Origin: a virus
IMG/VR virus record: IMGVR_UViG_3300045988_182490
Length of the DNA: 64,000 bases
Reading direction: 5' to 3' (one strand)
A model generated the notes under the pieces. That model was given only the letters and a program-made list of their open reading frames with translations, ran no database searches and was not told where the DNA came from. The translations under genes were made by a program, and so were the position numbers. Each line of letters opens with the position of its first letter. The stretch's first letter is position 1. This document shows positions 3,625 to 56,526 of this stretch, in pieces.

Positions 3625-3630
3625 CTATAT

Positions 3631-3705
3631 GGCCGATTCGACTAGATGGTTTAGGTCACGAGGCTTTCAACCTCGTAGCAGCGGGTTCAAGTCCCCTATC
3701 GGTCA
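3631..3705 (+). tRNA. tRNA-Glu (UUC)
   Basis: anticodon stem CGAGG/CCTCG, loop CTTTCAA; acceptor GGCCGAT/ATCGGTC. Confidence 0.7.
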
Positions 3706-3776
3706 CTGCAGAATAATCTGCGATACAATTTAAAACAATGGGACTTATGGAACCAGGCACTCCGGGAGTCCCAGAT

Positions 3777-3849
3777 GCAGGTGTAGTATAACTGGTCAGT
3801 ACGGTGGCTTGCCAAGTCATAGACGCGGGTTCAAATCCCGTCGCTTGCT
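3777..3849 (+). tRNA. tRNA-Gly (GCC)
   Basis: loop TTGCCAA, GGTTCAAATCC T-arm, acceptor GCAGGTG/CGCTTGC; flanked by 13-bp direct repeat GAACCAGGCACTC. Confidence 0.7.
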
Positions 3850-3951
3850 TTAATTCTGAACCAGGCACTCAGAATTTAAAAAATCTATTACAGGAGAAAA
3901 TAATATGAACAAACGATTTAGCAAGGATAAAACCGAAAGTAATTTTATCCA

Positions 3952-4023
3952 GCCTCGTAAGCTAACTTGGTAGAAGCGCCAGTCTGAAAAACTGGAGGAT
4001 CGGATCGTAACCGAAACGAGGCA
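3952..4023 (+). tRNA. tRNA-Phe (GAA)-like, atypical T-arm (possible pseudo-tRNA)
   Basis: acceptor GCCTCGT/ACGAGGC, D-arm AGCTAACTTGGTAGAAGC, loop CTGAAAA; T-loop ATCGTAA non-canonical. Confidence 0.35.
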
Positions 4024-4027
4024 TTAT

Positions 4028-4102
4028 GGCTGCATCGCCTAGCTGGTTATGGCACCTCCCTGTCACGGAGGAATAACACGGGTTCAAGTCCCGTTGCAGT
4101 CG
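4028..4102 (+). tRNA. tRNA-Asp (GUC)
   Basis: loop CTGTCAC, GGGTTCAAGTCCC T-arm, acceptor GGCTGCA/TGCAGTC. Confidence 0.75.
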
Positions 4103-4109
4103 CTATTGT

Positions 4110-4185
4110 GCATGTGTGGTCCAGTGGTTTTGGACACCTGCCTTCCAAGCAGGACATCACGCGGGTTCGAATCCCGTCACATGCT
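4110..4185 (+). tRNA. tRNA-Gly (UCC)
   Basis: loop CTTCCAA, GCGGGTTCGAATCCCGT T-arm, acceptor GCATGTG/CACATGC. Confidence 0.75.
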
Positions 4186-4254
4186 CTATATCAAAAGTAA
4201 AGGAGATGAAAAAATATGCCAGACTATTATTATATGGGAACTGAATATTATTAA

Positions 4255-4342
4255 CGGCAGGTATGCAAAGGGCTGAAGCAAAGTGTCTGTAAAACACTGA
4301 CCCACGCGGTAAACATTGTGAGTCCGAATCTCACCCTGCCGA
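4255..4342 (+). tRNA. tRNA-Tyr (GUA), long variable arm
   Basis: loop CTGTAAA, variable arm about 14 nt, T-loop TCCGAAT. Confidence 0.6.
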
Positions 4343-4347
4343 CTTCT

Positions 4348-4430
4348 GGGCAGGTATCCCGTAATTGGCAGCGGTGCAGTCTGTAAAACTGTTGGCTTCG
4401 GCTTCTGGCGGTTCAAGTCCGTCTCTGCCC
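4348..4430 (+). tRNA. tRNA-Tyr (GUA)-like second copy, long variable arm
   Basis: acceptor GGGCAGG/TCTGCCC, loop CTGTAAA, GGTTCAAGTCC. Confidence 0.55.
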
Positions 4431-4442
4431 ATTAAAAAATAT

Positions 4443-4521
4443 GTCCTGATACGCAAATTGGCAAAGCGGCCACGCTAAGGACGTGGTGAATTGTTTGTGG
4501 GTTCGACTCCCACTCAGGATA
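4443..4521 (+). tRNA. tRNA, isotype unresolved (anticodon loop CTAAGGA)
   Basis: GGGTTCGACTCCCAC T-arm, acceptor GTCCTGA/TCAGGAT; anticodon ambiguous. Confidence 0.4.
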
Positions 4522-4528
4522 TTAAGAT

Positions 4529-4602
4529 GTCCATGTGGTGCAACTGGCAGACACGCTGGTTTCAGAGACCAGATGTTGGAAGTTCGAATCTTCTCATGGG
4601 CA
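4529..4602 (+). tRNA. tRNA with Leu anticodon (CAG) but short variable arm
   Basis: Leu-like D-arm GTGCAACTGGCAGAC, stem CTGGT/ACCAG, loop TTCAGAG, 5-nt variable region. Confidence 0.5.
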
Positions 4603-4608
4603 CTTTAT

Positions 4609-4681
4609 CGGGATGTGGCGCAATTGGTAGCGCGCGTGATTTGGGATCATGAGGCTGCAGGTTCGAGACCTGTCATTCCGA
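4609..4681 (+). tRNA. tRNA-Pro (UGG)
   Basis: loop TTTGGGA, GCAGGTTCGAGACCTGT T-arm. Confidence 0.7.
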
Positions 4682-4687
4682 CTGTAT

Positions 4688-4761
4688 GCATCAGTGCCGC
4701 AACTGGCAGACGGGACCGGCTCAAACCCGGTTTTCTATGGGTTCGAATCCCTTCTGGTGCA
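4688..4761 (+). tRNA. tRNA with Leu anticodon (CAA) but short variable arm
   Basis: paralog of 4529 tRNA; stem ACCGG/CCGGT perfect, loop CTCAAAC. Confidence 0.5.
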
Positions 4762-4776
4762 TTTGTTTTAAAATTT

Positions 4777-4848
4777 TGGTTTGTAGCTCAATGGTAGAGC
4801 AACCGGCTGTTAACCGGTAGGTTGTGGGTTCAAGTCCCACCATTCCAG
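4777..4848 (+). tRNA. tRNA-Asn (GUU)
   Basis: TAGCTCAATGGTAGAGC D-arm, loop CTGTTAA, GTGGGTTCAAGTCCCAC; acceptor has 2 mismatches. Confidence 0.55.
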
Positions 4849-4852
4849 CTAT

Positions 4853-4936
4853 GGAGGCTGTGGCCGAGTTGGTTAGGCAGCAGATTGTGGCTCTGCGGAA
4901 GTAATTCCTACGTGGGTTCGAGCCCCACTGGTCTCC
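4853..4936 (+). tRNA. type-II tRNA (Ser-like D-arm TGGCCGAGTTGGTTAGGC), anticodon reads GUG; identity uncertain
   Basis: long variable arm with GGAA/TTCC hairpin, GTGGGTTCGAGCCCCAC T-arm. Confidence 0.45.
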
Positions 4937-4950
4937 CTGAAATCAAATAT

Positions 4951-5022
4951 GCCGCTGTAGCACAATGGCAATGCACCTGCTTTGTAATCAGGGGATTAAG
5001 GGTTCGAGTCCCTTCTGCGGCT
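4951..5022 (+). tRNA. tRNA-Thr (UGU)
   Basis: loop TTTGTAA, AAGGGTTCGAGTCCCTT. Confidence 0.6.
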
Positions 5023-5024
5023 TA

Positions 5025-5095
5025 TAGGCGGTTAGGCTAGAGGTAAACCGTGCGGTTCTGAACCGTTAGACACCCGTTCGATTCGGTTACTGTCT
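5025..5095 (+). tRNA. tRNA-like, possibly Gln (CUG); acceptor stem not resolved
   Basis: loop TTCTGAA between CGG/CCG, T-loop TTCGATT; could not pair a clean acceptor. Confidence 0.3.
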
Positions 5096-5100
5096 GCTAT

Positions 5101-5172
5101 GTCCCCATAGCTTAATGGATAGAGTTTTCGGCTACGAACCGAAAGATTGGCGTTCGAGTCGCCATGAGGACA
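5101..5172 (+). tRNA. tRNA-Arg (ACG)
   Basis: stem TTCGG/CCGAA, loop CTACGAA, TGGCGTTCGAGTCGCCA. Confidence 0.7.
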
Positions 5173-5178
5173 TTAAAC

Positions 5179-5252
5179 GCCTGTGTAGCTCCAATTGGCA
5201 GAGCGTCTATCTCGTAAGTAGAGGGTTGCAAGTTCAAATCTTGTCACAGGCT
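5179..5252 (+). tRNA. tRNA-Thr (CGU)
   Basis: perfect acceptor GCCTGTG/CACAGGC, loop CTCGTAA, GCAAGTTCAAATCTTGT. Confidence 0.7.
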
Positions 5253-5265
5253 TTATAAAAATATT

Positions 5266-5335
5266 GTGGTGTATTTCAATGGTAGAAAGACCGTCTGATG
5301 AGCGGTTAATATCAGTTCAATTCTGTTCACCACAA
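5266..5335 (+). tRNA. tRNA-Ile (GAU)
   Basis: acceptor TGTGGTG/CACCACA, loop CTGATGA, T-loop TTCAATT. Confidence 0.55.
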
Positions 5336-5339
5336 CTAT

Positions 5340-5412
5340 GCTGATATAGCTCAACTGGGAGAGCACATGCCTTACAAGCATGGGGTTACAGGTTCGAGTC
5401 CTGTTATCAGCA
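5340..5412 (+). tRNA. tRNA-Val (UAC)
   Basis: TAGCTCAACTGGGAGAGC D-arm, loop CTTACAA, ACAGGTTCGAGTCCTGT. Confidence 0.8.
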
Positions 5413-5415
5413 TTT

Positions 5416-5490
5416 GCGGGTGAGTGGAACGGATTTACCATGCAGGGTTCATAACCCTTGCGATACCAGGCTTCGACTCCTGGACCCGCT
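5416..5490 (+). tRNA. tRNA-Met (CAU)
   Basis: loop TTCATAA, T-loop TTCGACT. Confidence 0.55.
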
Positions 5491-5492
5491 AC

Positions 5493-5564
5493 TCCAGGGT
5501 AGTATAGCGGCGAGTACGGCCGGTTCATGCCCGGTAGACCCGAGTTCGATTCTCGGCCTTGGAA
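5493..5564 (+). tRNA. tRNA-Met/Ile2 (CAU), second CAU tRNA
   Basis: stem GCCGG/CCGGT, loop TTCATGC, CCGAGTTCGATTCTCGG. Confidence 0.6.
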
Positions 5565-5645
5565 TCAAAAAATATTGATAAATGAGGAGAAAACAATCAT
5601 GAAACGAAAACAGTTATATAAGCGATTATCAAAGTTATAATGTAT

Positions 5646-5729
5646 GCATCCGTCGCCTAATTGGTATGGCACCAGACTTTTAATCTGGCGGAATTACTTT
5701 CCATGCGAGTTCGAGTCTCGTCGGGTGCA
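5646..5729 (+). tRNA. type-II (long-arm) tRNA whose anticodon reads UUU; identity uncertain (Leu-like body)
   Basis: stem CCAGA/TCTGG, loop CTTTTAA, 17-nt variable arm with GGAA/TTCC hairpin, GCGAGTTCGAGTCTCGT. Confidence 0.45.
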
Positions 5730-5751
5730 CTGACACTGTATGTGTATCCGC

Positions 5752-5824
5752 GGGTATGTAACTCAAGTGGCAGAGTAGCGGCCTCTTAAGCCGAAGGTTG
5801 CAGGATCATGGCCTGTCATGCCCA
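5752..5824 (+). tRNA. tRNA-Lys (CUU)-like with degenerate T-loop
   Basis: acceptor GGGTATG/CATGCCC, TAACTCAAGTGGCAGAGTA D-arm, loop CTCTTAA; T-loop ATCATGG. Confidence 0.45.
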
Positions 5825-5828
5825 TTAT

Positions 5829-5902
5829 GCGCCAGTAGCCCAATCGGCAGAGGCACAGGGTTTAAGCCCCTGTCAGTATCGGTTCGAATCCGATTTGGCG
5901 TA
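5829..5902 (+). tRNA. tRNA with anticodon UAA (Leu-type) and short variable arm
   Basis: perfect anticodon stem CAGGG/CCCTG, loop TTTAAGC, ATCGGTTCGAATCCGAT. Confidence 0.5.
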
Positions 5903-6221
5903 CTTTTTCAATATATTCAACAACAATTTATGAAAATTGTAAGAAAGGATAACCAATATGCGTAACACAAACATATGTAAAAGACAATCCAATAGTTCAT
6001 GGTCAGAGAGTAGACATAATAAGAAGATGTACTGCTTTATTTGTTGATGCAATTTTTTTGCATAACAATATTTGGCATTAGTTATTTTAGTAACAGCATC
6101 TTCTGATAAAAACATTATCGAAGGATGCTGTTTTTTGTATATAAAATTTCTGCATGAAAATTTATTAAAATCATTCATATTAATAATAAAAATAAAAAGT
6201 GCATTTTTTATAATTTTATAT

Positions 6222-6295
6222 GGGCATATAGTTTAATGGTTTAGAATACGAGATTCCAAATCTCGAAGATGTGGGTTCGAATCCTACTGTGCCTG
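6222..6295 (+). tRNA. tRNA-Trp (CCA)
   Basis: stem CGAGA/TCTCG, loop TTCCAAA, GTGGGTTCGAATCCTAC. Confidence 0.7.
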
Positions 6296-6325
6296 TTATA
6301 AGTCAATATTTAATAGACAGAAGGG

Positions 6326-6844
6326 ATGGTCGTAATGACAAATAATAATTGGATATCTCCAACATACGGACATTTAATTTTGGAAGAAATCCCTCAATAT
6401 ATCCGTGAATATTACAATAAAATGAAACAATATGATACAAATATACGAATTACGATTGGTACAGACTCTCAAAATTTCAACTATACAAAAGAAGTAAATG
6501 TCATTGCTGTTATCTGCGAGGGACATGGAGGCATATTCTTCTATAAAATCAATAATAGAGACCGTATTCTGGATGTAAGGACAAAATTGCAGATGGAAAC
6601 CGGAGACTCTTTGGAAATAGCAGATAAGCTGATTCATTTGTTAGAAGCAGAAGAGTACGAAGAAGTCTTTCTAAATACTACTTTTTCTATCCATATTGAC
6701 GCAGGATATTCTGAAAAAGGGAAAACCAAAGATTTGATACCTGAACTTGTCGGATGGGTAAAAGGAAGTATTTCAAATTGCGAAGTATATGTAAAACCAG
6801 ACAGCTACGTAGCATCTGGAATCGCTGATAAAATATCAAAATAA
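6326..6844 (+). CDS. YkuK/DUF458 family RNase H-like protein
   Basis: 172 aa; ITIGTDSQ motif and overall pattern of DUF458; embedded inside tRNA array. Confidence 0.5.
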   Translation: MVVMTNNNWISPTYGHLILEEIPQYIREYYNKMKQYDTNIRITIGTDSQNFNYTKEVNVIAVICEGHGGIFFYKINNRDRILDVRTKLQMETGDSLEIADKLIHLLEAEEYEEVFLNTTFSIHIDAGYSEKGKTKDLIPELVGWVKGSISNCEVYVKPDSYVASGIADKISK

Positions 6845-6867
6845 CAGGGGGTTCAAAAGCCCCAAAT

Positions 6868-6958
6868 GGAGCGGTGCCTCAATTGGTACAGGACCCGGTT
6901 GGAAGCCGGGCATGTCGTGTCAATCCACGCTTTGAGGGTTCAAGTCCCTCCCGTTCCG
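6868..6958 (+). tRNA. tRNA-Ser (GGA)
   Basis: stem CCCGG/CCGGG, loop TTGGAAG, long variable arm, GAGGGTTCAAGTCCCTC. Confidence 0.65.
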
Positions 6959-6963
6959 CTTTT

Positions 6964-7055
6964 GCTGTGATGGCTCAACTGGTACAGCACTGGTCTTGAA
7001 AACCGGCATGTCGGGTGAGATTCCCGCTTTCAGGGTTCGAATCCCTGTCACAGCG
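6964..7055 (+). tRNA. tRNA-Ser (UGA)
   Basis: perfect acceptor GCTGTGA/TCACAGC, loop CTTGAAA, long variable arm, CAGGGTTCGAATCCCTG. Confidence 0.75.
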
Positions 7056-7059
7056 CTAT

Positions 7060-7133
7060 GCCTCCGTAGTCTAATGGTTAGTGACGTCAGCTTCTCACGC
7101 TGAAGATGCGGGGTTCAAGTCCCCTCGGAGGTT
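7060..7133 (+). tRNA. tRNA-Glu (CUC)
   Basis: stem TCAGC/GCTGA, loop TTCTCAC, GGGGTTCAAGTCCCC. Confidence 0.6.
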
Positions 7134-7138
7134 CTTAT

Positions 7139-7212
7139 ACGGGCGTAGTCTAATTGGACAAAACAACGGTCTTCTAAATCGTACCTTGCGGGTTCGAGTC
7201 CCGTCGTCCGTA
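7139..7212 (+). tRNA. tRNA-Arg (UCU)
   Basis: loop CTTCTAA, GCGGGTTCGAGTCCCGT, acceptor ACGGGCG/CGTCCGT. Confidence 0.7.
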
Positions 7213-7219
7213 GTATTAT

Positions 7220-7295
7220 GGCATCGTGGTCGAGTGGTCTAAGGCGCCTGTCTGCAAAACAGGTTTTACCGTGGGTTCGAATCCCACCGATGTCT
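7220..7295 (+). tRNA. tRNA-Cys (GCA)
   Basis: stem CCTGT/ACAGG, loop CTGCAAA, GTGGGTTCGAATCCCAC. Confidence 0.65.
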
Positions 7296-7443
7296 TTGCA
7301 TTTAAGCTGTGCGAAGCAGATTAGTCACCTGTTTCTATTCAGTGTATATGCAAAAAGCCCGTGCTAAACGGTATTTCAGTCGAAATTGACTAACGGCTGC
7401 GGTATTCGTGATAAACCTGCCAATCTGCGGGGCACGGGAGTCT

Positions 7444-7534
7444 GCCAGTGTGGCTCAATTGGTACAGCACCTGCTTCGAACACAGGCAAGCCGGCATTTA
7501 TGTCGACGTACAGGTTCAAGTCCTGTCACTGGCG
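7444..7534 (+). tRNA. tRNA-Ser (CGA)
   Basis: perfect acceptor GCCAGTG/CACTGGC, loop TTCGAAC, long variable arm, ACAGGTTCAAGTCCTGT. Confidence 0.65.
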
Positions 7535-7540
7535 TTTTTA

Positions 7541-7609
7541 GTCCATTAGCATAGCGGTTAATGCACTGGGCCTTGACCCGGGGACTGCGGTTCGAATCCG
7601 CAATGGGCC
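7541..7609 (+). tRNA. tRNA, possibly Gln (UUG); short
   Basis: TGCGGTTCGAATCCGCA T-arm, acceptor GTCCATT/AATGGGC, anticodon region CCTTGAC. Confidence 0.4.
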
Positions 7610-7621
7610 GTTTATATTTTT

Positions 7622-7713
7622 TGCCGTGGTGGCTCAAATGGTAAAGCAGCGGATTGCTAATCCGCCATCTCGGAGTAAAATCCGGTTTCAGGGTTCGAGT
7701 CCCTGTCACGGCG
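7622..7713 (+). tRNA. tRNA-Ser (GCU)
   Basis: stem GCGGA/TCCGC, loop TTGCTAA, long variable arm, CAGGGTTCGAGTCCCTG. Confidence 0.7.
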
Positions 7714-7718
7714 TTTAT

Positions 7719-7747
7719 AGAGAAGTCCAATAGGACTTCTTTTTTGT
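7719..7747 (+). terminator. intrinsic terminator closing the tRNA array
   Basis: AGAAGTCC-AATA-GGACTTCT hairpin followed by TTTTTTGT. Confidence 0.6.
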
Positions 7748-7800
7748 ATATCTAAAATCTGACATATTAAATGTATCAATAAAGAAAAAAGGAGATTAAT

Positions 7801-7983
7801 ATGGAAGAAAAAATTAGAAAATATCTTGATCAGATATATGAAGAATGTGAAACTCTTCCTGAAAAATTTGGAGATGCAATTGTCAAAGAATTAAAGGCCA
7901 GATTTGATGAGGATGGTTATGAAATCACAAAGAAAACAGTACTGGAAGAAATGCTTTGGTGTTATATGTGCAAAATACAGTAA
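7801..7983 (+). CDS. hypothetical small protein
   Basis: 60 aa; AAGGAG RBS. Confidence 0.45.
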   Translation: MEEKIRKYLDQIYEECETLPEKFGDAIVKELKARFDEDGYEITKKTVLEEMLWCYMCKIQ

Positions 7984-40371: not shown

Positions 40372-40432
40372 TATTTTGTCTTGTTTCATCTGTCATATTA
40401 ATTACATCAAAAAGATAAATGGAGGAAATAAT

Positions 40433-41431
40433 ATGAAAGAAACAACGAACATTTTGGAATTATTTGGAGGTGTAGGAGCTCCACGTAGAGCGTTGGAATT
40501 ATGTGGGCTGAACATCAAATCCATCGATTATGTTGAGATTCTTCCTTATGCCGTATTAGCTTATAACAATATTTTTGATATTAGCTATAAACCGCAGAAT
40601 ATCATAAACTGGAATATGGATGTTGATATTCTAATTCATGGATCTCCTTGCCAGGACTTTACAAAAGAAGGTAAAAATGACATTAATACCGGTCGCTCTA
40701 TCCTTTATAACCGGACACTTGAAATTATCGAAAAGGGATTACATAAGAGACCTCCGGTAGTCATCTGGGAAAATGTCCCGAATCTGGCTTCTCAGGGTAA
40801 AAAGGTATCTCATAAACACCATTTGGACCATTATATCGAAACAATGGAAGCTATGGGATATAAAAGCACATATGCTATTCTTGATGCAAGTAAATACGGG
40901 ATTCCACAGGCAAGAGAACGGTTATATGTCGTGAGCTTATTATCTGGAAATGAATTTGAATTTCCGGATGAAATACCCCTTAAATTTCATCTACGGGATT
41001 TCCTTGATAAAACAGTGAATCCAGCTGATTACCAGCTCTCTGATGCAGAAAAACAGCTTTTCTTTACGAATAATGGAAAACTATATGTAAAGGAAGCTAC
41101 AAAAATTGGATATAAGCTCGTGGAAGATGGAGATTGCATCAATGTAGCTTTTCCTAATTCCAAAACAAGACGCGGTAGAGTAGGAAAAGGTGTTGCCAAA
41201 ACACTTACTACAGCCCCTAGACAAGCTGTATATACAAATGGTGTCCTTCGGATGTTGACTGCAAAGGAATATTGGCGGCTTATGGGTTTTAAGGATCGTG
41301 ATTATGCAGCAATGAAAAAAGTTGGTTTGACTGATGCTCAGATCTGTCATCTGGCCGGTAATTCAATTTGTGTTCCGGTACTTCAACATATTTTTACAAA
41401 ACTTATTGCCATGGGTGAAATCGAAAGATAA
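40433..41431 (+). CDS. DNA (cytosine-5)-methyltransferase, orphan
   Basis: 332 aa; motif I LFGGVGA, motif IV PCQDFT, motif VI ENVPNL, motif [13 protein letters not shown]. Confidence 0.9.
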
Positions 41432-43959: not shown

Positions 43960-44319
43960 ATGATACATCTCGAAAACGGGCATATTTATGAACTCACGAG
44001 TGATTTCGATATTTATTCATGTGATGACGGAAAGATAACAGTAAAAGCCGGTGCCGTTTTTGTAGCTGAGCGTGGAAATAATAGAATAATAAATGGCAGA
44101 GAATTGCCTTTTTACAATATATATATTTTACGGTCAAAAAGTTATCTTCCTTATTCATCCGCCTGTATATTTCAATCAATCAGTGGTATAACAATTAAAG
44201 AAATCACGATGGATATGTTGGATAAAGAAGCATTTGCAGGGTATCTACCATGGAATATCCGATTCGGAACAAATAGCAGTATCAGAGCAATGCAAAAAAT
44301 GATGGAGGAACGAAAATGA
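43960..44319 (+). CDS. hypothetical protein
   Basis: 119 aa. Confidence 0.45.
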   Translation: MIHLENGHIYELTSDFDIYSCDDGKITVKAGAVFVAERGNNRIINGRELPFYNIYILRSKSYLPYSSACIFQSISGITIKEITMDMLDKEAFAGYLPWNIRFGTNSSIRAMQKMMEERK

Positions 44320-45101
44320 TCTATATTACAGGAGATATTCATGGAGATCCCACAAGATTTTCCAAAGAAGCGTTTCCAGAACAATCAAAAATGACAAAAG
44401 AGGATTACGTTATTGTCTGTGGAGATTTTGGACTCGTATGGGATCAAATGGAATCAAGAACAGAAGAATATTGGCTTAACTGGCTTCAGAATAAGCCGTT
44501 CACTACATTATTCGTGGATGGTAATCATGAAAATCATGATAGATTGGATGCTATGCCAGTATCTGAATGGAATGGAGGAAATGTTCACTTTGTAAGACCT
44601 AATGTTATTCATTTAATGCGAGGCCAGGTATTTACTCTTTGTGAAAAAACATTCTTTACGTTTGGAGGAGCATCTTCCCATGATATCCAGGATGGTATTT
44701 TGGATCCTGATAATTATCAGTACGGAATTAAAGATCCTCTATTCAAAGAAGATAAAAAGAAGTTAGATGATAGAAGAGCCATGTACCGTATCAAGAGAGT
44801 ATCCTGGTGGGAACGTGAGCTTCCTAGCGAACAGGAGATGTCTGAAGGAATCGAAAATCTTAAGAAATACGGAAATAAAGTGGACTATATTATTTCCCAT
44901 AGTCCGTGCACCAGTGATATGTTCCTAATGGGCGGTAAAGGCATTTACCAGCCGGATATTATTTCGAACTATCTGGAAGAAGTAAGAGCCACAACGGAGT
45001 ATAAGAAATGGTATTTTGGACATATGCATATCAATAAGCAGGTGTCTATGCAGGATATTTGCTTGTATGAGCAAATTTTATTTGTCCCTACTTGTCAATA
45101 A
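44316..45101 (+). CDS. calcineurin-like metallophosphoesterase
   Basis: 261 aa; GDIHGD, GDFGLVWD, GNHENHD motifs; stop codon lies within first bases of IscB element copy 1. Confidence 0.8.
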   Translation: MIYITGDIHGDPTRFSKEAFPEQSKMTKEDYVIVCGDFGLVWDQMESRTEEYWLNWLQNKPFTTLFVDGNHENHDRLDAMPVSEWNGGNVHFVRPNVIHLMRGQVFTLCEKTFFTFGGASSHDIQDGILDPDNYQYGIKDPLFKEDKKKLDDRRAMYRIKRVSWWERELPSEQEMSEGIENLKKYGNKVDYIISHSPCTSDMFLMGGKGIYQPDIISNYLEEVRATTEYKKWYFGHMHINKQVSMQDICLYEQILFVPTCQ

Positions 45102-45361
45102 CCCATCACTAAAGTGACGGGCTTGTAAAAGCCCGATATTGACTAGCCTAAGTGTTTCGAACACTACGTTACGAGAGAATATATAGTCACCTGCGGATGT
45201 AATACCTAGTCTGCAGCTCTGAGGTCCGTGATTAAACAGTCCTGTTGGATAGGGACAGTGTTGCGGATATCCAAAACCTCTCATTAACATTGGCGAAGGT
45301 ATCATTACAGAGGAATGACCTCTGATTTATGTGATTTGGTTCACAGAAAGGAGTGCCTGTT
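45100..45361 (+). ncRNA. putative omega RNA (IscB guide scaffold), copy 1
   Basis: about 260-nt non-coding, GC-enriched, hairpin-rich region between IS left end and iscB start, canonical omega-RNA position. Confidence 0.6.
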
Positions 45362-46633
45362 ATGGTATATGTTCTTAACATTGACGGACAGCCGCTTATG
45401 CCCACTGACAGGCATGGAAAGGTCCGGCATCTTTTGAAAGACGGCCGGGCGGAAGTAGTAAAGCGCTGTCCGTTTACCATACGACTGTTGTATGACAGCA
45501 CGCACTATACACAGGATATCGTATTAGGTGTGGATGCCGGCAGCAAACATATCGGTTTGTCGGCCACCACAGAAACAAAAGAACTCTATGCTTCCGATGT
45601 GGAGCTAAGAAATGACATTGTGGATCTGATTTCCACACGCAGACAGAACCGCCGGTCACGGCGTAATCGTAAGATTCGTTATCGGAAGGCTCGTTTTCAG
45701 AACAGGGTATCCGGAAAGAAAAACTGGTTGGCTCCCAGTATCCGGCAGAAAGTCGATACACATATGACCGTGGTATCCAGAGTATGCATGATACTTCCGG
45801 TTACAAAGATCATCGTGGAGACAGCTTCTTTTGATATCCAGAAGATCAAGGATCCGGATATCAGTGGTACTGGTTATCAGCAGGGAGAGCAGCTCGATTT
45901 CTGGAACGTCCGGGAGTATGTATTATCCCGGGATGGTCATACCTGCCAGTGCTGCAAAGGCAAATCCAAGGATCCGGTGCTCAATGTACATCATATCGAG
46001 AGCCGAAAGACTGGTGGCGATGCTCCCAATAACCTGATCACCTTATGTGAGACATGCCATAAGAGTTATCACTCAGGTGCGGTGCAGCTGCCGAAAGCCA
46101 TCCATCGTGGCATGAGATTCAAGGATGCTGCATTCATGGGAGTCATGCGATGGAATTTCTATAACAAACTGAAGGAAATCTATGAGCTACAGGGCATTGA
46201 GATACGTATGACATTTGGGTATCTCACAAAGAATACCCGTATCCGTCATCATCTGCCAAAGGAGCATTACATAGATGCCAGGTGCATCAGCGGTCATCCG
46301 GAAGCAATACCCAGCAACGAAGTTTTCTATCAGAAGAAGGTTCGCTGCCATAACCGCCAGATACATAAGAACACTATCCTTAAAGGTGGTATCCGAAAAC
46401 GAAATCAGGCCGGCTATCTGGTAAAAGGCTTCCGGCTGTTCGATAAAGTAGCTTACAAAGGCAGAGAGTACTTCATTTTTGGACGCAGGCAAAGTGGATT
46501 CTTCGATTTGCGGAATCTGTCCGGATGCAAAGTAAACAAAGGCAGTCTCAGTTACCGGAAGATCGGATTTCTGGAACCGAGACAATACTATTTATGTGAA
46601 AGGAGAGTAATGGACACCCAGGGCTGTGCTTAA
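45362..46633 (+). CDS. iscB: IscB RNA-guided nuclease (PLMP-RuvC-BH-HNH-RuvC)
   Basis: 423 aa; PLMP (GQPLMP), RuvC-I GVDAGSKHIGLS, Arg-rich bridge helix, RuvC-II IIVETASFD, HNH CQCCKG...HHI...NLITLCETCH, RuvC-III EHYIDARC. Confidence 0.9.
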   Translation: MVYVLNIDGQPLMPTDRHGKVRHLLKDGRAEVVKRCPFTIRLLYDSTHYTQDIVLGVDAGSKHIGLSATTETKELYASDVELRNDIVDLISTRRQNRRSRRNRKIRYRKARFQNRVSGKKNWLAPSIRQKVDTHMTVVSRVCMILPVTKIIVETASFDIQKIKDPDISGTGYQQGEQLDFWNVREYVLSRDGHTCQCCKGKSKDPVLNVHHIESRKTGGDAPNNLITLCETCHKSYHSGAVQLPKAIHRGMRFKDAAFMGVMRWNFYNKLKEIYELQGIEIRMTFGYLTKNTRIRHHLPKEHYIDARCISGHPEAIPSNEVFYQKKVRCHNRQIHKNTILKGGIRKRNQAGYLVKGFRLFDKVAYKGREYFIFGRRQSGFFDLRNLSGCKVNKGSLSYRKIGFLEPRQYYLCERRVMDTQGCA

Positions 46634-46981
46634 CAGCACTCCTCCCACGACTAAAGTCACGGGTGCCCGTGCTAAGCGAATTTATGAAATATTACCTATA
46701 ATAACGAAGAGGGACAGATAGCTGTTCCTCTTTGTTATTATCTAAAAGGGATAGTATATTGGTACTTTCGATGTAAACGGGACAATAATCTGTGCCGGTT
46801 GCATAAAGGGATAATATACTATTCCTTTAAATTTATTAATTAAAGGAACATAATTCTATCACTTTCAATCATATAAGGGATATAATATTATCCTTTTAAC
46901 ATATAGCTTATAATTTTTAGAAATGATCTTTTTGTCTCTTTATCTGTCATATTAATGGTAGAAAAACAAACGGAGGTGCTT

Positions 46982-47770
46982 ATGTTAAAAGAATTACGCA
47001 GCAGATCCTTTACAAATGGAAAGGTATATGCATTAGAAACAGAGGATGGATATCCATTGGAAGTCACCGATACTTTTTTACCAAATTATACAAAGGACGC
47101 AATCAATAACAATGAAAACACACTGAAGACATATGAAGTTGGAGACCGGACCAATCGCTGGATGATTGGTGTTAGTTGTATGAGCGGCTGTCCTGTGCAT
47201 TGTAAGTTCTGCGCAACCGGAAAACTTAAAAGATGGCGTTGCTTAACAGCCGAAGAGATTGTAGCTCAGGTGGAATTTATTATCAAACAGAATCCGGAAT
47301 ATCGATTTGAAGATGCTTGGGAACATAAAATCAATTACACCAGAATGGGAGAGCCGTTCCTAAATATAGAAGAAGTAAAAAAAGCTATTCAGATGATTGA
47401 CGAAAAGTATCCAGGAACGCATCATTATATCTCTACAGTTGGATTACAGGGAAGCGATTTTAGCTGGATTAAAGACAATATTACGTTACAAGTTAGCTTA
47501 CATAGTCTTGATGAGGAAAGACGACACAATTTAATTCCTATCAGTAATCTGATGTCTATCGAAGAACTGGGCCAGATTCGGACAAATAGTAATTTAAAAA
47601 CAACTGTCAATATGACATTAGTTGACTATGAAGATTTTGACATCAATATCTTGACCAAATATTTTGATCCTAGATATTTTTTTATAAAATTAAGTCCTAT
47701 TAACGAGAACGAGATTTCTGAGAAAAATCATATGGGATCTGGTATTATCGAGAAAAGAAATTTGATGTAA
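46982..47770 (+). CDS. RlmN/Cfr-like radical SAM methyltransferase, N-terminal and core part (split gene)
   Basis: 263 aa; SCMSGCPVHCKFCATG (CxxxCxxC in RlmN-specific context), MGEPFLN, ISTVGL, VSLHSLDEERRHNLIPI align with RlmN residues about 60-320. Confidence 0.65.
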   Translation: MLKELRSRSFTNGKVYALETEDGYPLEVTDTFLPNYTKDAINNNENTLKTYEVGDRTNRWMIGVSCMSGCPVHCKFCATGKLKRWRCLTAEEIVAQVEFIIKQNPEYRFEDAWEHKINYTRMGEPFLNIEEVKKAIQMIDEKYPGTHHYISTVGLQGSDFSWIKDNITLQVSLHSLDEERRHNLIPISNLMSIEELGQIRTNSNLKTTVNMTLVDYEDFDINILTKYFDPRYFFIKLSPINENEISEKNHMGSGIIEKRNLM

Positions 47771-47791
47771 TACGCAAAGGAGGAAAAACTC

Positions 47792-47917
47792 ATGGAGAAA
47801 ATCGCAAATCAGTTAAGGGCAGCAGGTTATGATTACGCAGTTGCCATTGCGACTGAAGCAGAAATTACTGCAAAAGCTGCATGCGGCCAGTTAGCCATTA
47901 TTACTGAGGATAAGTAA
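47792..47917 (+). CDS. RlmN-like C-terminal fragment carrying conserved ACGQL cysteine motif (separate micro-ORF)
   Basis: 41 aa with own AAAGGAGG RBS; LRAAGYDYAVAIATEAEITAKAACGQLAI parallels RlmN ...[27 protein letters not shown]. Confidence 0.55.
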   Translation: MEKIANQLRAAGYDYAVAIATEAEITAKAACGQLAIITEDK

Positions 47918-47968
47918 TCGTTAACAGGAAATGCCCCACTCAGGGGCATTTTCTATGGAGGAAAAAAT

Positions 47969-48769
47969 ATGTTACATAATCATAGAGTGTTCCGGTATCG
48001 AATTATCACGAATTTTCATTGTAATCAGAACTGTTATTTTTGCTTTCAGCCGGAAAAGCGAGAAAAGATATTAGATATTGAAAAAATGGAAGATACTATG
48101 AAAAAGGTAGGTATGTTGGAAAGAGCTACCATTATGGGCGGAGAGAGTTTACTTTTACCGAATATCGTAGATTATTTCAAAGTAGTGCATAAATATGTAA
48201 ATACAATTTGCCTGGTAACAAACGGTACGAAGTTAACTGAAGATTTGACAAAAGCTTTAGTAGAAAATGGACTGGAAGAAATGGCAATCTCTATATCTTC
48301 TAAAGAACAATATAAGGCCAGAAGAGAACAGATACTGATTGCAAAAAAGTACGTGCCTAATTTACGCATCAATCTTCCAAAATCTTGGGAGTCTACTGGG
48401 GAAAAGTTATATGAACTTGTTGATATGATTTTAGCAGATGATATCGGCGTGGTTGTATGTGAAGATCTTATGGGCAGATACAATTTAAACTATAAAAACA
48501 GCTATGAAGATCTGCTTTATGGTATGGGCGCTAAATTATTACGCAGTGATGGACATAATTTCTTCACGTTTGAGTGGAAGGGAAAAGAATTTGGGTTGTT
48601 TGGGTATCACGGAGATAAAAACGCATCCGCAGATACGGAAGAAGCCGGATACGAAAAGACAGATATTATCATTGCACCGAATTGTCATTCTGATGAACGG
48701 TATTCCCATAAAGTCTATTCTGTGTGGGAAGATTACTGCCATGATATAGGAAACCACGACTTGGCATAG
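47969..48769 (+). CDS. radical SAM domain protein (MoaA/PqqE-like core, no SPASM extension)
   Basis: 266 aa; ITNFHCNQNCYFCF (CxxxCxxC), MGGESLLL, LVTNGTKL. Confidence 0.65.
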   Translation: MLHNHRVFRYRIITNFHCNQNCYFCFQPEKREKILDIEKMEDTMKKVGMLERATIMGGESLLLPNIVDYFKVVHKYVNTICLVTNGTKLTEDLTKALVENGLEEMAISISSKEQYKARREQILIAKKYVPNLRINLPKSWESTGEKLYELVDMILADDIGVVVCEDLMGRYNLNYKNSYEDLLYGMGAKLLRSDGHNFFTFEWKGKEFGLFGYHGDKNASADTEEAGYEKTDIIIAPNCHSDERYSHKVYSVWEDYCHDIGNHDLA

Positions 48770-48778
48770 GAGTGCAGT

Positions 48779-49213
48779 ATGCTTAAAATTGATTTTGGCA
48801 GCGGATATAATCCATATCCTGGATATAAAACATGTGATATTACTCAAGGTCCCTATTTAGATTATGTATACAATACAGAGACAAACGAAATTATTGGATT
48901 GCAAGAAGGATCCGTTGATGAATTTCGCCTTAAAAACGTACTACATCATGCTGATATACCGAAGGTGATTCAGTGTCTCCACAGATATTTAAAATCAGGC
49001 GGAATTCTGCAAATTATTGAACCAAGGACGGAGTATTACGAACAAAACCGGTGTCTGGATCTGTTTTGGTATCGTTACATTTATCCGAGATATGAAATAG
49101 CAATTCCTCCCAAAAGGAGAGTTGACTACTTAAAAATATGCGAGGCATATTTTAAAATCTCATCACATCAAAATGCAGATGTTTATGACGTTTATTTTTT
49201 TGTTAACCGATAA
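48779..49213 (+). CDS. small class I SAM-dependent methyltransferase-fold protein
   Basis: 144 aa; motif I KIDFGSGYNP, motif III LKSGGILQI. Confidence 0.5.
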   Translation: MLKIDFGSGYNPYPGYKTCDITQGPYLDYVYNTETNEIIGLQEGSVDEFRLKNVLHHADIPKVIQCLHRYLKSGGILQIIEPRTEYYEQNRCLDLFWYRYIYPRYEIAIPPKRRVDYLKICEAYFKISSHQNADVYDVYFFVNR

Positions 49214-49248
49214 TAATTAGCAGAACCTTATATAAGGAGTAAATATAT

Positions 49249-49974
49249 ATGCTATCTTTTTTACAAAAATTAATTAATAGTAAAAATAATACAGTAATAT
49301 CTTCAAAACAAGATGCTGTCACTGCAAATAGTGACGACTTAATTCAGGAAAAGCCAATACCTAACTGCAAAAATGCTTTCCATATATTAATCATTACAGA
49401 TACGCATTGTCATATGAGAAAAGAACAAATAGAAGACTTTCTCTCTGACATCGAAGATAAAATTGATATTGTCTTTATATTAGGTGATATGAGCGAAAGA
49501 GATATGTTCGTTGCAAAAGAAATAGCTAAAAAATATAAAGCTCTCATCTATGGAATTCTTGGTAATCATGATTATGATGGACAATTAGAAGAAATGGATA
49601 TTCCAAATTTTGAAGGAAAGATGATAGAATTTAATGGAGTTACGTTTACAGGAATGCACGGAAGCTTTAAATATAAGAACTCTGACGCACCTATGTTAAC
49701 TAACGAAGAGAGTATAGAATTAGCAAAAATACTACCAACTTGTGATATTTTTCTTACTCACGATAAAGCTAGAACAAATAATGAAGAAAATTCGCATAGT
49801 GGATTAGAAGGCATAACTCAGTATATTTTAGATAAAAAACCAGAATATCATATTCATGGACATCTTCATGAAAATATGAACGAAAATATTGGCGGAATTA
49901 GTTCTTTGGGATTTTGTAGATATGCATATATCGAAGTATCTAAAAATGGATTAAAAATCAAAAAGATTTTTTAA
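49249..49974 (+). CDS. calcineurin-like metallophosphoesterase
   Basis: 241 aa; ILIITDTHCH, ILGDMSE, ILGNHDYD, GMHGS motifs. Confidence 0.75.
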   Translation: MLSFLQKLINSKNNTVISSKQDAVTANSDDLIQEKPIPNCKNAFHILIITDTHCHMRKEQIEDFLSDIEDKIDIVFILGDMSERDMFVAKEIAKKYKALIYGILGNHDYDGQLEEMDIPNFEGKMIEFNGVTFTGMHGSFKYKNSDAPMLTNEESIELAKILPTCDIFLTHDKARTNNEENSHSGLEGITQYILDKKPEYHIHGHLHENMNENIGGISSLGFCRYAYIEVSKNGLKIKKIF

Positions 49975-51773: not shown

Positions 51774-52340
51774 ATGCTTAAAACATTATGTAATTTAAAA
51801 GAAATAAGCGTATATAGATGCTCTAAAGACACAAATATTCCGTATTCGACATTAAGTGACATTGCAAATCATAAAACGGACCCCAATAATATCAACGCAC
51901 TTATACTAAAACGATTGGCTGAATATTTTTCTTTATCTATGGATGATTTATATACAATTTTAAATCTAAAACAGCGGGTTCCTTTTTCTTCATTTAGAAG
52001 CGAAATGTGTCACAAGCTTCACAGAAATGGCGATATAGAAATGCTATCATTTATTAGGAAAAATAATTATATTCCCATATTATGGAATATAAGATGGTAT
52101 CCGGAAGCCCTATATACATTGGCCATGTTCGATGAAATAACAGAAAAAAATAACGCAAGCTTATGTATGGATTATGAACAATATAGGAAGACAAAAATGA
52201 AAGAGCTGATCGTCTCTCCTGATATTATTTTAATGGAGAAGCTAACAGGCAAAGACGATGAGCGTCAAAAACTGATTGCAAATGCCAATCCATATTTTTT
52301 ACAGTACAACATATTGGAAGGAGATATTTATGCCGAGTGA
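51774..52340 (+). CDS. XRE-type HTH protein, putative antitoxin of NTase pair
   Basis: 188 aa; N-terminal HTH ISVYRCSKDTNIPYSTLSDIANHK; stop overlaps start of downstream NTase gene. Confidence 0.45.
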   Translation: MLKTLCNLKEISVYRCSKDTNIPYSTLSDIANHKTDPNNINALILKRLAEYFSLSMDDLYTILNLKQRVPFSSFRSEMCHKLHRNGDIEMLSFIRKNNYIPILWNIRWYPEALYTLAMFDEITEKNNASLCMDYEQYRKTKMKELIVSPDIILMEKLTGKDDERQKLIANANPYFLQYNILEGDIYAE

Positions 52341-53148
52341 AAATGATATACAACTTGACCGTGAACTAATGCTTACGTGTTTAAAAGAAGTAGCAAAAGA
52401 ATATCACAAACAGTTTAAAGGAGGAAATATTGAAATTATTATAGTCGGCGGAGCATCATTGGCTATGAATTATAATTTTCGACCGGGAACGACAGATATA
52501 GACGCTTTTATTGTAGCTAGGGAAGATTTAAAAGACATCATCAATAAAATCGGTGACAAATACAATTTACCAAATGGTTGGCTAAATCAGGATTTTAAAT
52601 ATACAGATTCTTACAGCCCTAACATCCGTCAATATAGTAAATATTATGCTTCTTATTCTCATTGTATGGAAGTTCGGACGATAAAAGACGAATATCTTAT
52701 AGCTATGAAATTAGCTTCTTATCGTCCTTATAAGCATGATCGATCTGATATTATTGGCATTATTATTGAAAATGATCGACAGGGCAGATCAATCACTTTC
52801 GACAAGGTAGATAAAGCTGTCCGGGATTTGTATGGAAACTGGAACAAAATATCTGTTGAGGCAAAGCTTTCGCTTAAATCGCTCCTTGCTGCACATAGTC
52901 TTGAAACTGTTTACGATGAGATAACCAAACAGGAGCAGATAAGTAAAAATACTTTGATAAACTTTGAAGAAAAATATCCAGGGATTCTTTCTGAAGACAA
53001 TGTTTCCGATATAGTAAACTGTCAAACTCCTAAAGAAGATGTTTTATCCGTTGATGATTTAATAGCTAAAGCAACAGAAAAAGTTCAACAGTCAAATTCC
53101 AGAAATGTGCATACTCAATCCCTGAGTATCGACGATTTCATTTTATAA
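52330..53148 (+). CDS. AbiEii/MenT-like nucleotidyltransferase (DUF1814-like) putative toxin
   Basis: 272 aa; IIIVGGASLAMNYNFRPGTTDIDAF resembles AbiEii KGGTAL...RFSEDIDF core. Confidence 0.5.
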   Translation: MPSENDIQLDRELMLTCLKEVAKEYHKQFKGGNIEIIIVGGASLAMNYNFRPGTTDIDAFIVAREDLKDIINKIGDKYNLPNGWLNQDFKYTDSYSPNIRQYSKYYASYSHCMEVRTIKDEYLIAMKLASYRPYKHDRSDIIGIIIENDRQGRSITFDKVDKAVRDLYGNWNKISVEAKLSLKSLLAAHSLETVYDEITKQEQISKNTLINFEEKYPGILSEDNVSDIVNCQTPKEDVLSVDDLIAKATEKVQQSNSRNVHTQSLSIDDFIL

Positions 53149-55581: not shown

Positions 55582-56526
55582 ATGAATATCGTATTACTTG
55601 TTATTGGTGTTGTAGCTGCAATTTTGGGAATTATAATTAGAATTTTGACGAAGGATACTGGTTATGTAAAGCTCGGCAAACATTATGCACATCCTATGAT
55701 TATCGGTGGCCTTATACTACTGGTATTTAGTCAGTCGTTTGCAATTATTCCAACTGGATATACCGGAGTACGAATTACATTCGGACAGATTGATAATCGA
55801 ACGGTTCAGAATGGATTTAACTGGAAGATTCCTTTTGTGCAGTCTATTAATCAGGTCAACAATAAACAGCAGGATATTTCCTATACCGGCCAGGTTTGGA
55901 GTGAGACTGCTGAGCGTACCGTTTTATACTATGAAGGAATAACTGTCACATACACAATTAACCCCGAAAAGAGCGCCTGGATCTATGCGAACGTATCAGA
56001 TTATAAGAAAAATCTGATTTCAGATAATCTTGTTGCATCCGCAATCAAGAGTAGCAGTAAGGAACTGAATTCTACAGATGCAACCAATCGTGGAATCATT
56101 GAACCTATTGCACAGGAAAAGATTCAGGAAGCTTTAGATCAAAAGTATGGTCCCGATGTGGTATTTATCAATAAGGTAGTTATCGCAAATACTGACTTTG
56201 AAGAAAGCTATAATCAGGCCATTGCAGATAAACAGACTGCGCAGCTTGCGTATGAAAAGCAGCAGATTGAAAATAAACGGCAGATTGAAGCGGCGGAAGC
56301 AGATGCTCAGGTTAAAACGACGCAGGCAAAAGCTGAAGCTGACGCAGCTGTAATTAAGGCGCAGGGCGAGGCGGATGCAAATAAACTTTTGAATGATTCC
56401 ATTACGGATAAGATTTTGAGACAGCAGTATTATGAAAAGTGGAACGGACAGCTACCTAATGTTATTACCGGTGATTCCAGTGACATTATTATGGATATTG
56501 GAAAAACAACATTGGGAGAAGAATAA
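55582..56526 (+). CDS. SPFH/band-7 (prohibitin/HflC-K-like) membrane protein
   Basis: 314 aa; two N-terminal TM, TGYTGVRITFGQI...NWKIPFVQSI SPFH core, Ala/Gln-rich coiled coil. Confidence 0.8.
   Translation: MNIVLLVIGVVAAILGIIIRILTKDTGYVKLGKHYAHPMIIGGLILLVFSQSFAIIPTGYTGVRITFGQIDNRTVQNGFNWKIPFVQSINQVNNKQQDISYTGQVWSETAERTVLYYEGITVTYTINPEKSAWIYANVSDYKKNLISDNLVASAIKSSSKELNSTDATNRGIIEPIAQEKIQEALDQKYGPDVVFINKVVIANTDFEESYNQAIADKQTAQLAYEKQQIENKRQIEAAEADAQVKTTQAKAEADAAVIKAQGEADANKLLNDSITDKILRQQYYEKWNGQLPNVITGDSSDIIMDIGKTTLGEE

Follow-up and report, generated by a model that had tools for sequence, protein, structure and literature searches.

A split, phage-borne relative of RlmN and Cfr with its predicted methyl-carrier cysteine on a separate 41-residue product

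The virus-derived DNA of IMG/VR record IMGVR_UViG_3300045988_182490 (a stretch of 64,000 nucleotides, hereafter referred to as the window) encodes a 262-aa radical S-adenosylmethionine (SAM) protein of the RlmN/Cfr type and, directly downstream of it, a 41-aa protein that corresponds to the cysteine-bearing C-terminal tail of RlmN. With moderate confidence, we interpret this pair as an ancient two-gene phage enzyme whose small product is a Cys-carrier peptide acting in trans and whose substrate is probably non-ribosomal. RlmN is a dual-specificity C2-methyltransferase of 23S rRNA A2503 and tRNA A37, Cfr is a C8-methyltransferase of 23S rRNA A2503 that confers multidrug resistance, and their two-cysteine, single-chain mechanism is a textbook one; to our knowledge, no other class A radical SAM methylases have been characterised. 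The large phage-borne family described here shows three oddities with respect to that scheme, namely, a putative methyl-carrier Cys on a separate protein, a Gly in place of the resolving Cys, and the lack of the RNA-binding domain. It comprises at least 2,700 clusters of the large protein, and its members come from crAss-like, Felix-O1-like, and T4-like Vibrio phages, jumbo phages, and contigs binned to DPANN archaea and to bacteria of the candidate phyla radiation (CPR). Our literature search found no description of a split or phage RlmN-like system, and the features listed below point to a new class A-like radical SAM system of phages that is split, lacks both the Cys118 equivalent and the N-terminal domain, and has an undescribed function.

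The preliminary description of this locus, which was made from the sequence alone, had delineated two open reading frames (ORFs), and both are present at the positions given in Table 1 with the motifs that it quoted. The large ORF encodes VSCMSGCPVHCKFCATG, RMGEPFLN, ISTVGL, and VSLHSLDEERRHNLIPI and ends with a TAA codon at positions 47768-47770, and the C terminus of the 41-codon ORF reads ...EAEITAKAACGQLAIITEDK. The spacer between them is indeed 21 nt long (TAA and 7 sense codons, YAKEEKL), but the two ORFs share one frame rather than lying in different frames, as had been stated. Each ORF has a Shine-Dalgarno sequence of its own, including the one that had been noted for the small ORF. 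An alternative ATG at position 46955 would add 9 residues to the large protein, whose homologs of 261 to 265 aa begin at the Met equivalent to ATG 46982. The hairpin that had been noticed after the small ORF is also recovered by folding, with a free energy of -21.8 kcal/mol and a z score of -4.39, and none of 200 shuffled sequences was equally stable; a simple terminator scan gave no call at this position, and the hairpin is possibly a terminator or an attenuator. A megablast search of this region of the window against deposited phages gave no match.

The separate peptide gene is a regular companion of the large gene. In a set of 86 viral loci (80 from IMG/VR, 5 from phage records, and the window), it is found in 84, on the same strand as the large gene every time, and it is retained in 36/37 lineages after de-replication at 85% and in 53/56 after de-replication at 80%; because the same gene accompanies the large one in 84 of the 86 loci, the pairing is far beyond chance. 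In some 35 viral loci the peptide gene adjoins the large gene, with gaps of 2 to 23 nt and relative frames of 0, 1, and 2. A second radical SAM gene separates the two in about 40 crAss-like loci, where the peptide gene is 1.1 kb downstream, and in others the distance is 0.2 to 2.8 kb. Among the loci from genomes and metagenome-assembled genomes, all readable phage-type members (L086 to L132) have a separate peptide gene, which can also lie upstream, 1.7 kb away in L093 and 0.8 kb away in L127. Kehishuvirus “tikkala” and Moorella phage MTATph1, whose large proteins show 64% and 44% identity, respectively, carry annotated genes of 40 to 43 aa directly after the large gene, with the encoded sequence ...AVATxxEIxxxAACGQL.... 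The window-type junction itself is shared by at least 9 independent assemblies of relatives that are 90 to 98% identical, with the 21-nt spacer in L166 to L169 and a 20-nt spacer that contains AAAGGAGG and puts the ORFs in different frames in L170 to L174. The comparison with homologous loci of phages and other mobile elements, which had been proposed as a check, thus shows the split to be conserved across hundreds of divergent loci and bears out the genuine two-piece enzyme, one of the two readings offered in the preliminary description. Among the cellular RlmNs at L133 to L165, the AACGQ tail is fused in 20 of 33, and the other 13 have neither the searched motif nor a separate peptide gene.

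Both ORFs are subject to purifying selection. The ratio of nonsynonymous to synonymous substitution rates (dN/dS) is 0.105 for the large ORF, whereas for the small ORF it is 0 in the comparison with L166 and 0.15 in those with L086 and L087. The divergence of the large protein correlates with that of the peptide (Mantel r = 0.70; 0/2000 permutations gave as high a value), in keeping with co-divergence of the two genes.

The assignment of the large protein to the RlmN/Cfr type, as originally proposed, is supported by profiles, sequences, and fold alike. Its best matches among the NCBIfam profiles are the RlmN/Cfr models, with TIGR00048 on top (77.5 bits, E = 9e-22) and the Cfr models at about 50 bits, and the only Pfam match is PF04055 (34.3 bits, with a cut-off of 29.5). 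RlmN and Cfr are also the best matches in a phmmer search of Protein Data Bank (PDB) sequences, where residues 58 to 297 of the concatenated products align to RlmN; the C terminus of the large protein aligns to approximately RlmN residue 326, close to the residue ~320 that had been estimated. An AlphaFold2 (AF2) model of the large protein has a pLDDT of 88.6, and the top 8 Foldseek matches of this model in the PDB are all RlmN or Cfr, with E values from 3e-12 to 7.6e-7, followed by the next match at 2e-3. Cfr (PDB 9P0P; E = 7.6e-7) is a weaker match than RlmN; it has the same class A fold and, in principle, the same two-SAM ping-pong chemistry. The CX3CX2C motif is present in 180/180 family members, which, together with the PF04055 score above its cut-off and the fold, places the family in the radical SAM superfamily. 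Further motifs that it shares with the E. coli RlmN (PDB 3RF9/3RFA and 5HR6/5HR7) are GEP, for SAM binding, and S-L-H. In the interpretation preferred here, the large protein corresponds to the [4Fe-4S]/SAM core of a class A (RlmN/Cfr-type) radical SAM enzyme. The databases contain 2,726 homologs of this protein; the best 120 are all 257 to 281 aa long, and none of these is fused to the peptide. PHROGs has no dedicated family for either the large protein or the peptide, and the isoelectric points (5.6 for the large protein, with a family median of 7.0, and 4.7 for the peptide) are uninformative on nucleic acid binding.

However, members of this family are not bona fide RlmN or Cfr proteins, as their scores are far under the cut-offs, the N-terminal domain is absent, and Cys118 is replaced by Gly. 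Against the curated cut-offs of 290, 633, 530, and 550 bits for TIGR00048, PRK11194, and the Cfr models NF000424 and TIGR04432, respectively, the large protein scores 77.5, 46.6, 51.0, and 46.7 bits, and concatenation of the two products raises these scores only to 82.2, 52.3, 55.6, and 52.5 bits. The RlmN N-terminal domain (PF21016), an accessory domain that serves RNA recognition, has no match in the large protein in a Pfam search even at E ≤ 1. The profile alignments begin at model positions 91 to 105, and the cluster motif is at residue 70, as opposed to ~125 in RlmN. All canonical RlmNs that were compared carry PF21016, whereas the window family and a sister clade of fused proteins do not.

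In the E. coli RlmN, Cys118 sits 7 residues before the first cluster Cys. This column is occupied by Gly63 in the window protein and by Gly in 180/180 family members; in the same alignment, the crystal chains with the C118A change show Ala and 6FZ6 shows Cys, and the canonical cellular RlmNs at L133 to L165 all have Cys there. Across the 180 members, no cysteine of the large protein is invariant except for Cys70, Cys74, and Cys77 of the cluster motif. In RlmN, Cys355 is the methyl carrier and Cys118 the resolving cysteine, which reverses the role that the preliminary description had given to Cys355, and mutation of Cys118 abolishes m2A formation and traps a covalent protein-RNA adduct (PMC5130265). 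Another residue, Cys66, which is located 3 positions after the Cys118 column, is shared by the window protein and 126/180 members, with T or V in the others. It looks like a bystander, since Cys is also present there in canonical RlmNs that retain Cys118.

The Joint Genome Institute (JGI) pipeline labels 262-aa proteins of this family and several of the 40-aa peptides (P0170, P0175, P0179, P0212, and similar ones) as “adenine C2-methylase RlmN of 23S rRNA A2503 and tRNA A37.” With Cys118 and the N-terminal domain missing, this label is doubtful and probably wrong in function.

The 41-residue peptide corresponds to the part of RlmN that the large protein lacks. When the two products are joined, the RlmN/Cfr profile alignments run to the profile end (model position 342/355), and in phmmer the peptide aligns to RlmN residues 327 to 359, with AACGQLA at residues 353 to 359, including Cys355. 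The proposal that the small ORF is the Cys-bearing C-terminal segment of RlmN is therefore upheld, and of the profile check that had been suggested for the pieces, separate and joined, the parts concerning the large ORF and the joined sequence came out as expected. A set of 47 unique peptides aligns without gaps (consensus m..ik.qL...GydyAvAiAT.aEi.agAACGQL.ii.e), and the Cys is kept in 47/47, including the GSACGQL and GAACGML variants; the sequence is near-invariant across phages of different phyla. The methyl-carrier motif is conserved but borne on a separate product, and by similarity to RlmN its Cys may be S-methylated. Database searches with the peptide retrieved 231 clusters, and the best 120 homologs are all 38 to 71 aa long, with no fusions among them. 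A tblastn search with the 41-aa sequence gave no match among deposited phages, presumably owing to the low-complexity filter, since L001 and L002 do contain the gene. In the Vibrio phage D479 (L004, positions 3737 to 4084), the peptide module is tandemly duplicated in a single ORF of 93 to 118 aa (...AGAACGQMAILDEVKEAGFDAGLAIATDAEVDAGAACGQMAIL...), and this ORF and the large gene overlap at the latter's 3' end.

Natural fusions of three kinds, retrieved by an exhaustive search of representative sequences and matched by the peptide in P0303, P0350, P0346, and P0259, indicate how the two parts might fit together. In P0303 and P0350, the core is fused to the module at the C terminus, whereas P0259 has the module at the N terminus (residues 13 to 48), followed by the core (84 to 327) and a second radical SAM domain (404 to 521); from this circular permutation, the module appears to be an autonomous docking unit. 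In the AF2 model of the fused P0303 (pLDDT of 87.8), the module helix (281 to 293) and strand (296 to 299) have values of 92 to 97 and the Cys loop has values of 66 to 72. This module-containing model aligns with the E. coli RlmN over 313 to 347 columns (TMt of 0.60 to 0.64), compared with 273 to 288 columns (TMt of 0.47 to 0.54) for the large protein alone.

The P0303 clade (~85 clusters) is chromosomal, i.e., cellular, and resembles the window family in the absence of PF21016, in the N-terminal beta-sheet, the core, and the helix-strand-ACGQ module, and in having no Cys at the Cys118 position, which is Thr in this clade. It differs in having the module in one chain with the core and in an extra invariant Cys11, which corresponds to an invariant Asn12 in the window family. 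Another Cys118-less relative, P0340, is likewise fused, and in the loci examined the separate peptide gene is confined to families with Gly in the Cys118 column. The window sequence, when read through, is exactly collinear with P0303 at the junction, which fits an origin of the split by gene fission inside the linker. Phage proteins of a third type, Salmonella phage Arash gp133c, Vibrio phage 249E41-1 P0171, and Aeromonas phage Ahp1 AHP1_741, also lack the RlmN N-terminal domain and have the N-terminal beta-sheet, the core, and the helix-strand-ACGQ module in common with the window family, but they keep Cys in the Cys118 column and have a fused GGGCGQLW tail. In P0306, P0346, and P0362, the fused module is combined with an Isochorismatase domain, and more distant relatives are fused to Isochorismatase (nicotinamidase-type), NUDIX, or HD/dNTPase-like domains.

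By analogy with RlmN, a possible reaction sequence can be outlined. The 262-aa core would be an enzyme from which both the C-terminal tail and the N-terminal domain for RNA binding have disappeared, with the 41-aa product representing that tail. The helix and the beta-strand of the peptide would dock on the core, and the flexible AACGQL loop would bring Cys31 into the active site, where, like RlmN Cys355, it would be S-methylated by one molecule of SAM. The 5'-deoxyadenosyl radical from a second SAM may then convert the S-methyl group into a thiomethylene radical, which would attach a single carbon to an sp2 carbon atom in the substrate. As Cys118 is an invariant Gly here, product release would have to use another group, for example, a different residue, a thiol from outside, or a second molecule of the peptide; otherwise, the peptide-substrate adduct would persist, perhaps as the intended product.

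The gene neighborhoods link a part of the family to NAD+ salvage. Across 56 lineages, the partners of the large gene are the peptide (53 lineages), a second radical SAM protein (17), NAMPT/NadV (16), NMNAT+NUDIX (14), a mini-methyltransferase (9), and Isochorismatase plus NAD synthase (PncA-NadE; 4). In ~30% of the lineages, the pair is found inside NAD+-salvage operons, in which the genes often abut or overlap and the order is variable. Thus, NatV-NadV-rSAM-pep is found in L020, L025, and L033, NatV-rSAM-pep-NadV in L008, NatV-rSAM-pep-MT-rSAM2 in L126, and PncA/NadE-rSAM-pep-NatV in the DPANN-binned L128 and L129, and in L085 NadV directly follows the peptide gene (rSAM, pep, and MT stand for the radical SAM, peptide, and methyltransferase genes). 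These gene strings resemble the NAD+-reconstitution pathway NARP2 (Nampt plus Nmnat/Nudix), which is present in ~1.1% of phage genomes (PMC13464706). NARP2 was, however, published as a two-enzyme pathway, and we found no mention of a radical SAM partner either in the descriptions of NAD+ reconstitution or elsewhere in the literature that was searched. In L008, an NadV-like ORF of 816 aa (positions 5523 to 7973) carries an insert resembling an intein, and this assignment is putative.

Behind the pair, the window has a cassette (positions 47969 to 49974) that encodes the second radical SAM protein, the mini-methyltransferase, and a phosphoesterase (Table 1). The second radical SAM protein has weak matches to viperin, MoaA, and NrdG-type proteins, all under the cut-off; in crAss-like loci, its gene follows the large gene with an ATGA overlap, and the mini-methyltransferase travels with it. 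It is only marginally similar to the radical SAM domain at the C terminus of P0259 (E = 0.006 over 82 aa), so that P0259 shows no more than that some second radical SAM domain partners the core. The same metallophosphoesterase is encoded in L166 and L167, whereas L170 to L173 have a Thg1-like gene instead (32.3 bits, with a cut-off of 29.2); Thg1 is the tRNA-His guanylyltransferase family. In this 90%-identical lineage, the cassette ends in the Thg1-like gene (L170, positions 5418 to 6095) and is preceded by an NAD-dependent DNA ligase.

Several points weigh against the interpretation of the pair as a trans-acting enzyme with a non-ribosomal substrate. The peptide alone has no match in Pfam or NCBIfam, the part of the profile check that failed, and its homology is visible solely in the concatenation and against the fused relatives. 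The proposed docking of the free peptide is modeled on those fused proteins, and we know of no precedent in class A for chemistry without the resolving Cys. Cys66 could serve as the resolving cysteine in those members that have it. The window has no NAD-salvage genes by tblastn and is instead occupied by the second radical SAM, mini-methyltransferase, and phosphoesterase genes, so the NAD link may hold for a part of the family only. Finally, a tRNA substrate stays live, given the Thg1-like gene in the 90%-identical lineage and the location of 4 of 60 related loci inside tRNA arrays.

As to the substrate, loss of the RNA-binding domain, the NAD operons, and the Isochorismatase, NUDIX, and HD fusions favor an adenine or pyridine NAD nucleotide, or another non-ribosomal target, over A2503. 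We suggest tentatively, and with tRNA as a live alternative, that the pair acts on a non-ribosomal compound, possibly a nucleotide of the NAD pathway. A more specific version of this idea, which we consider speculative and rather unlikely, is that the free 40-residue peptide is an exchangeable, possibly consumable one-carbon carrier and that the Cys118-less core acts with it on an NAD-pathway nucleotide as a phage module for NAD+ reconstitution or counter-defense. If so, a C-methylated derivative of NAD+, nicotinamide mononucleotide (NMN), or ADP-ribose (ADPR) might escape the host NADases, or ADPR-derived immune signals might be disabled.

The most durable of the competing explanations, although an improbable one, is that the pair is a canonical RlmN or Cfr in two pieces, which methylates C2 or C8 of 23S rRNA A2503 and/or tRNA A37 and serves the phage tRNAs or drug resistance, as the preliminary description had implied. 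RlmN and Cfr are, after all, the closest known relatives in both sequence and fold, the window phage has its own tRNAs, the Thg1-like gene follows the cluster in the sister lineage, and the four loci within tRNA arrays (L015, L025, L033, and L105) could be read in the same way. Yet the TIGR00048 score of 77.5 bits stands against an equivalog cut-off of 290 bits, about 4-fold higher, the NF000424 scores of 51 to 56 bits against 530 bits, there is no PF21016, and the cluster motif is displaced accordingly; the Cys tail is a separate gene, and the Gly found in 180/180 members replaces a residue whose change inactivates RlmN. The conserved neighbors of the phage-borne genes, moreover, are those of NAD salvage and the second radical SAM protein rather than translation or other housekeeping genes, and no evidence of resistance was found for the family. 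The array of 34 tRNAs that had been noted as adjacent is not next to the locus: ARAGORN finds 33 tRNAs at positions 3552 to 7714, ~39 kb from the locus, and tRNAs are found within 4 to 6 kb in only 9 of 60 related loci. A link of the system to the tRNA array is accordingly unsupported. The array itself is entirely on the plus strand, includes 2 tRNA-Tyr, 4 tRNA-Ser, and 4 tRNA-Leu genes, and contains a gene at positions 7539 to 7611 for which ARAGORN reports an irregular two-base anticodon.

Still less probable is that the small protein is a substrate or consumable, either a precursor of the type of peptides that are made on ribosomes and modified after translation (RiPPs) or a sacrificial one-carbon carrier left covalently on its target. 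A small peptide gene next to two radical SAM genes and a methyltransferase does resemble a RiPP cluster, the tandem double module of D479 is what would be expected for stoichiometric use, the strong ribosome-binding site before the peptide gene and the hairpin after it could be seen in the same light, and the missing Cys118 predicts a stable adduct. However, the peptide is homologous over its full length to a structural element of RlmN, the equivalent module is docked with high pLDDT in the fused relatives, and the natural 1:1 fusions at either terminus argue for a subunit role. Furthermore, there is no leader/core architecture, and no protease, exporter, or other transporter was found nearby or in the neighborhood clustering; most loci have a single radical SAM gene, and the near-invariance of the peptide is unlike that of RiPP cores.

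The remaining explanation, that the locus is an inactivated gene (the frameshift reading of the preliminary description), an assembly artefact, or two parts joined by read-through of the TAA codon, can draw on the shared frame of the two ORFs and on the collinearity of the read-through product with the fused P0303 (SP[IL]N and G[FY] delimit 46 residues in each) but is refuted for the family and has a negligible probability, in view of the independent junctions, the 20-nt spacer with its change of frame in the 90%-identical lineage, the use of all three frames among the relatives, in which the peptide gene can also lie upstream, behind other genes, or as far as 2.8 kb away, the lack of fusions among the best 120 homologs of either product, the separate Shine-Dalgarno sequences, the purifying selection (dN/dS of 0 to 0.15 for the small ORF), and the co-divergence. 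For the same reasons of frame, distance, and upstream location, a general read-through fusion was ruled out as well.

On the preferred reading of the pair as a two-gene enzyme, it represents a natural, easily expressed two-component system for dissecting the loading of the methyl-Cys loop and its delivery, and it raises the question of how the adduct is resolved without Cys118. Its embedding among NAD+-salvage genes suggests a missing component of phage NAD+ counter-defense or a new nucleotide modification. Direct tests could be conducted in cultured phages, which include Kehishuvirus “tikkala,” Moorella phage MTATph1, Pectobacterium phage Arno162, Yersinia phage P778, and Vibrio phage D479. 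For genome annotation, pipelines that name the large genes “RlmN” probably mis-assign their function, and the small gene is easily overlooked.

Table 1. Sequence features of the two-gene locus and the genes that follow it in the window
Feature	Positions	Strand	Basis or comment
Shine-Dalgarno GGAGG of the large gene	46972-46976	+	Sequence read; 5 nt 5' of ATG 46982
Large-subunit gene	46982-47770	+	262 aa; radical SAM core of the RlmN/Cfr type that lacks the N-terminal domain and C-terminal tail of RlmN
Gly63 codon, in the column of resolving Cys118 of RlmN	47168-47170	+	phmmer alignment to E. coli RlmN C118A chains
CX3CX2C [4Fe-4S]/SAM cluster motif (Cys70, Cys74, Cys77)	47189-47212	+	Sequence read
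Shine-Dalgarno AAAGGAGG of the peptide gene	47776-47783	+	Sequence read; within the 21-nt in-frame spacer
Gene for the 41-aa putative Cys-carrier peptide (helix, beta-strand, AACGQL loop)	47792-47917	+	Homolog of RlmN ~327-359
Cys31 codon of the peptide, equivalent of RlmN Cys355 (predicted methyl carrier)	47882-47884	+	Alignment of AACGQLA at RlmN 353-359
Hairpin 3' of the peptide gene	47926-47954	+	Stem of 12 bp with a 3' side rich in U
Second radical SAM protein, 266 aa	47969-48769	+	PF04055, 52 bits
Mini SAM-methyltransferase-like protein, 144 aa	48779-49213	+	phrog_5399, 83 bits; Methyltransf_11 weak
Metallophosphoesterase	49249-49974	+	PF00149, 47.5 bits

In addition to the pair and its cassette, the window contains several other features. 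A complete IscB element is located just upstream, at positions 45094 to 46633 (flanks at ~45088 to 46684). It consists of a HEARO/omega RNA (RF02033, 142 bits) at positions 45094 to 45308 and a gene for a 426-aa IscB protein at positions 45353 to 46633 with a PLMP-type RRXRR domain (219 bits) and an HNH domain; as the 98%-identical L166 has a gene for a 179-aa protein at this place, the element was inserted, or replaced that gene, recently. Between positions 46746 and 46887, in the intergenic stretch that lies upstream of the large gene, there are three plus-strand copies of the motif AAGGGATA(N)TATA (positions 46746, 46806, and 46875) and an inverted one at 46815 to 46827. The motif has 5 matches in the whole window, compared with 0.68 expected, and these repeats could be promoter or operator repeats.

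The surrounding part of the window is an island of accessory genes, among them those for a C5 cytosine DNA methylase, a second metallophosphoesterase, a DUF6036 nucleotidyltransferase, and an SPFH/Band-7 protein (positions 40376 to 41431, 44316 to 45101, 52276 to 53148, and 55582 to 56526). An SPFH gene is also found just upstream of the pair in Kehishuvirus “tikkala.” An association of SPFH/Band-7 genes with the pair was considered and rejected, as it is limited to this phage and the window (55582 to 56526) and does not recur in the neighborhood clustering. Among the relatives of the large protein, the 601-aa P0241 contains a LAGLIDADG/Hint intein inserted at the cluster-binding motif.

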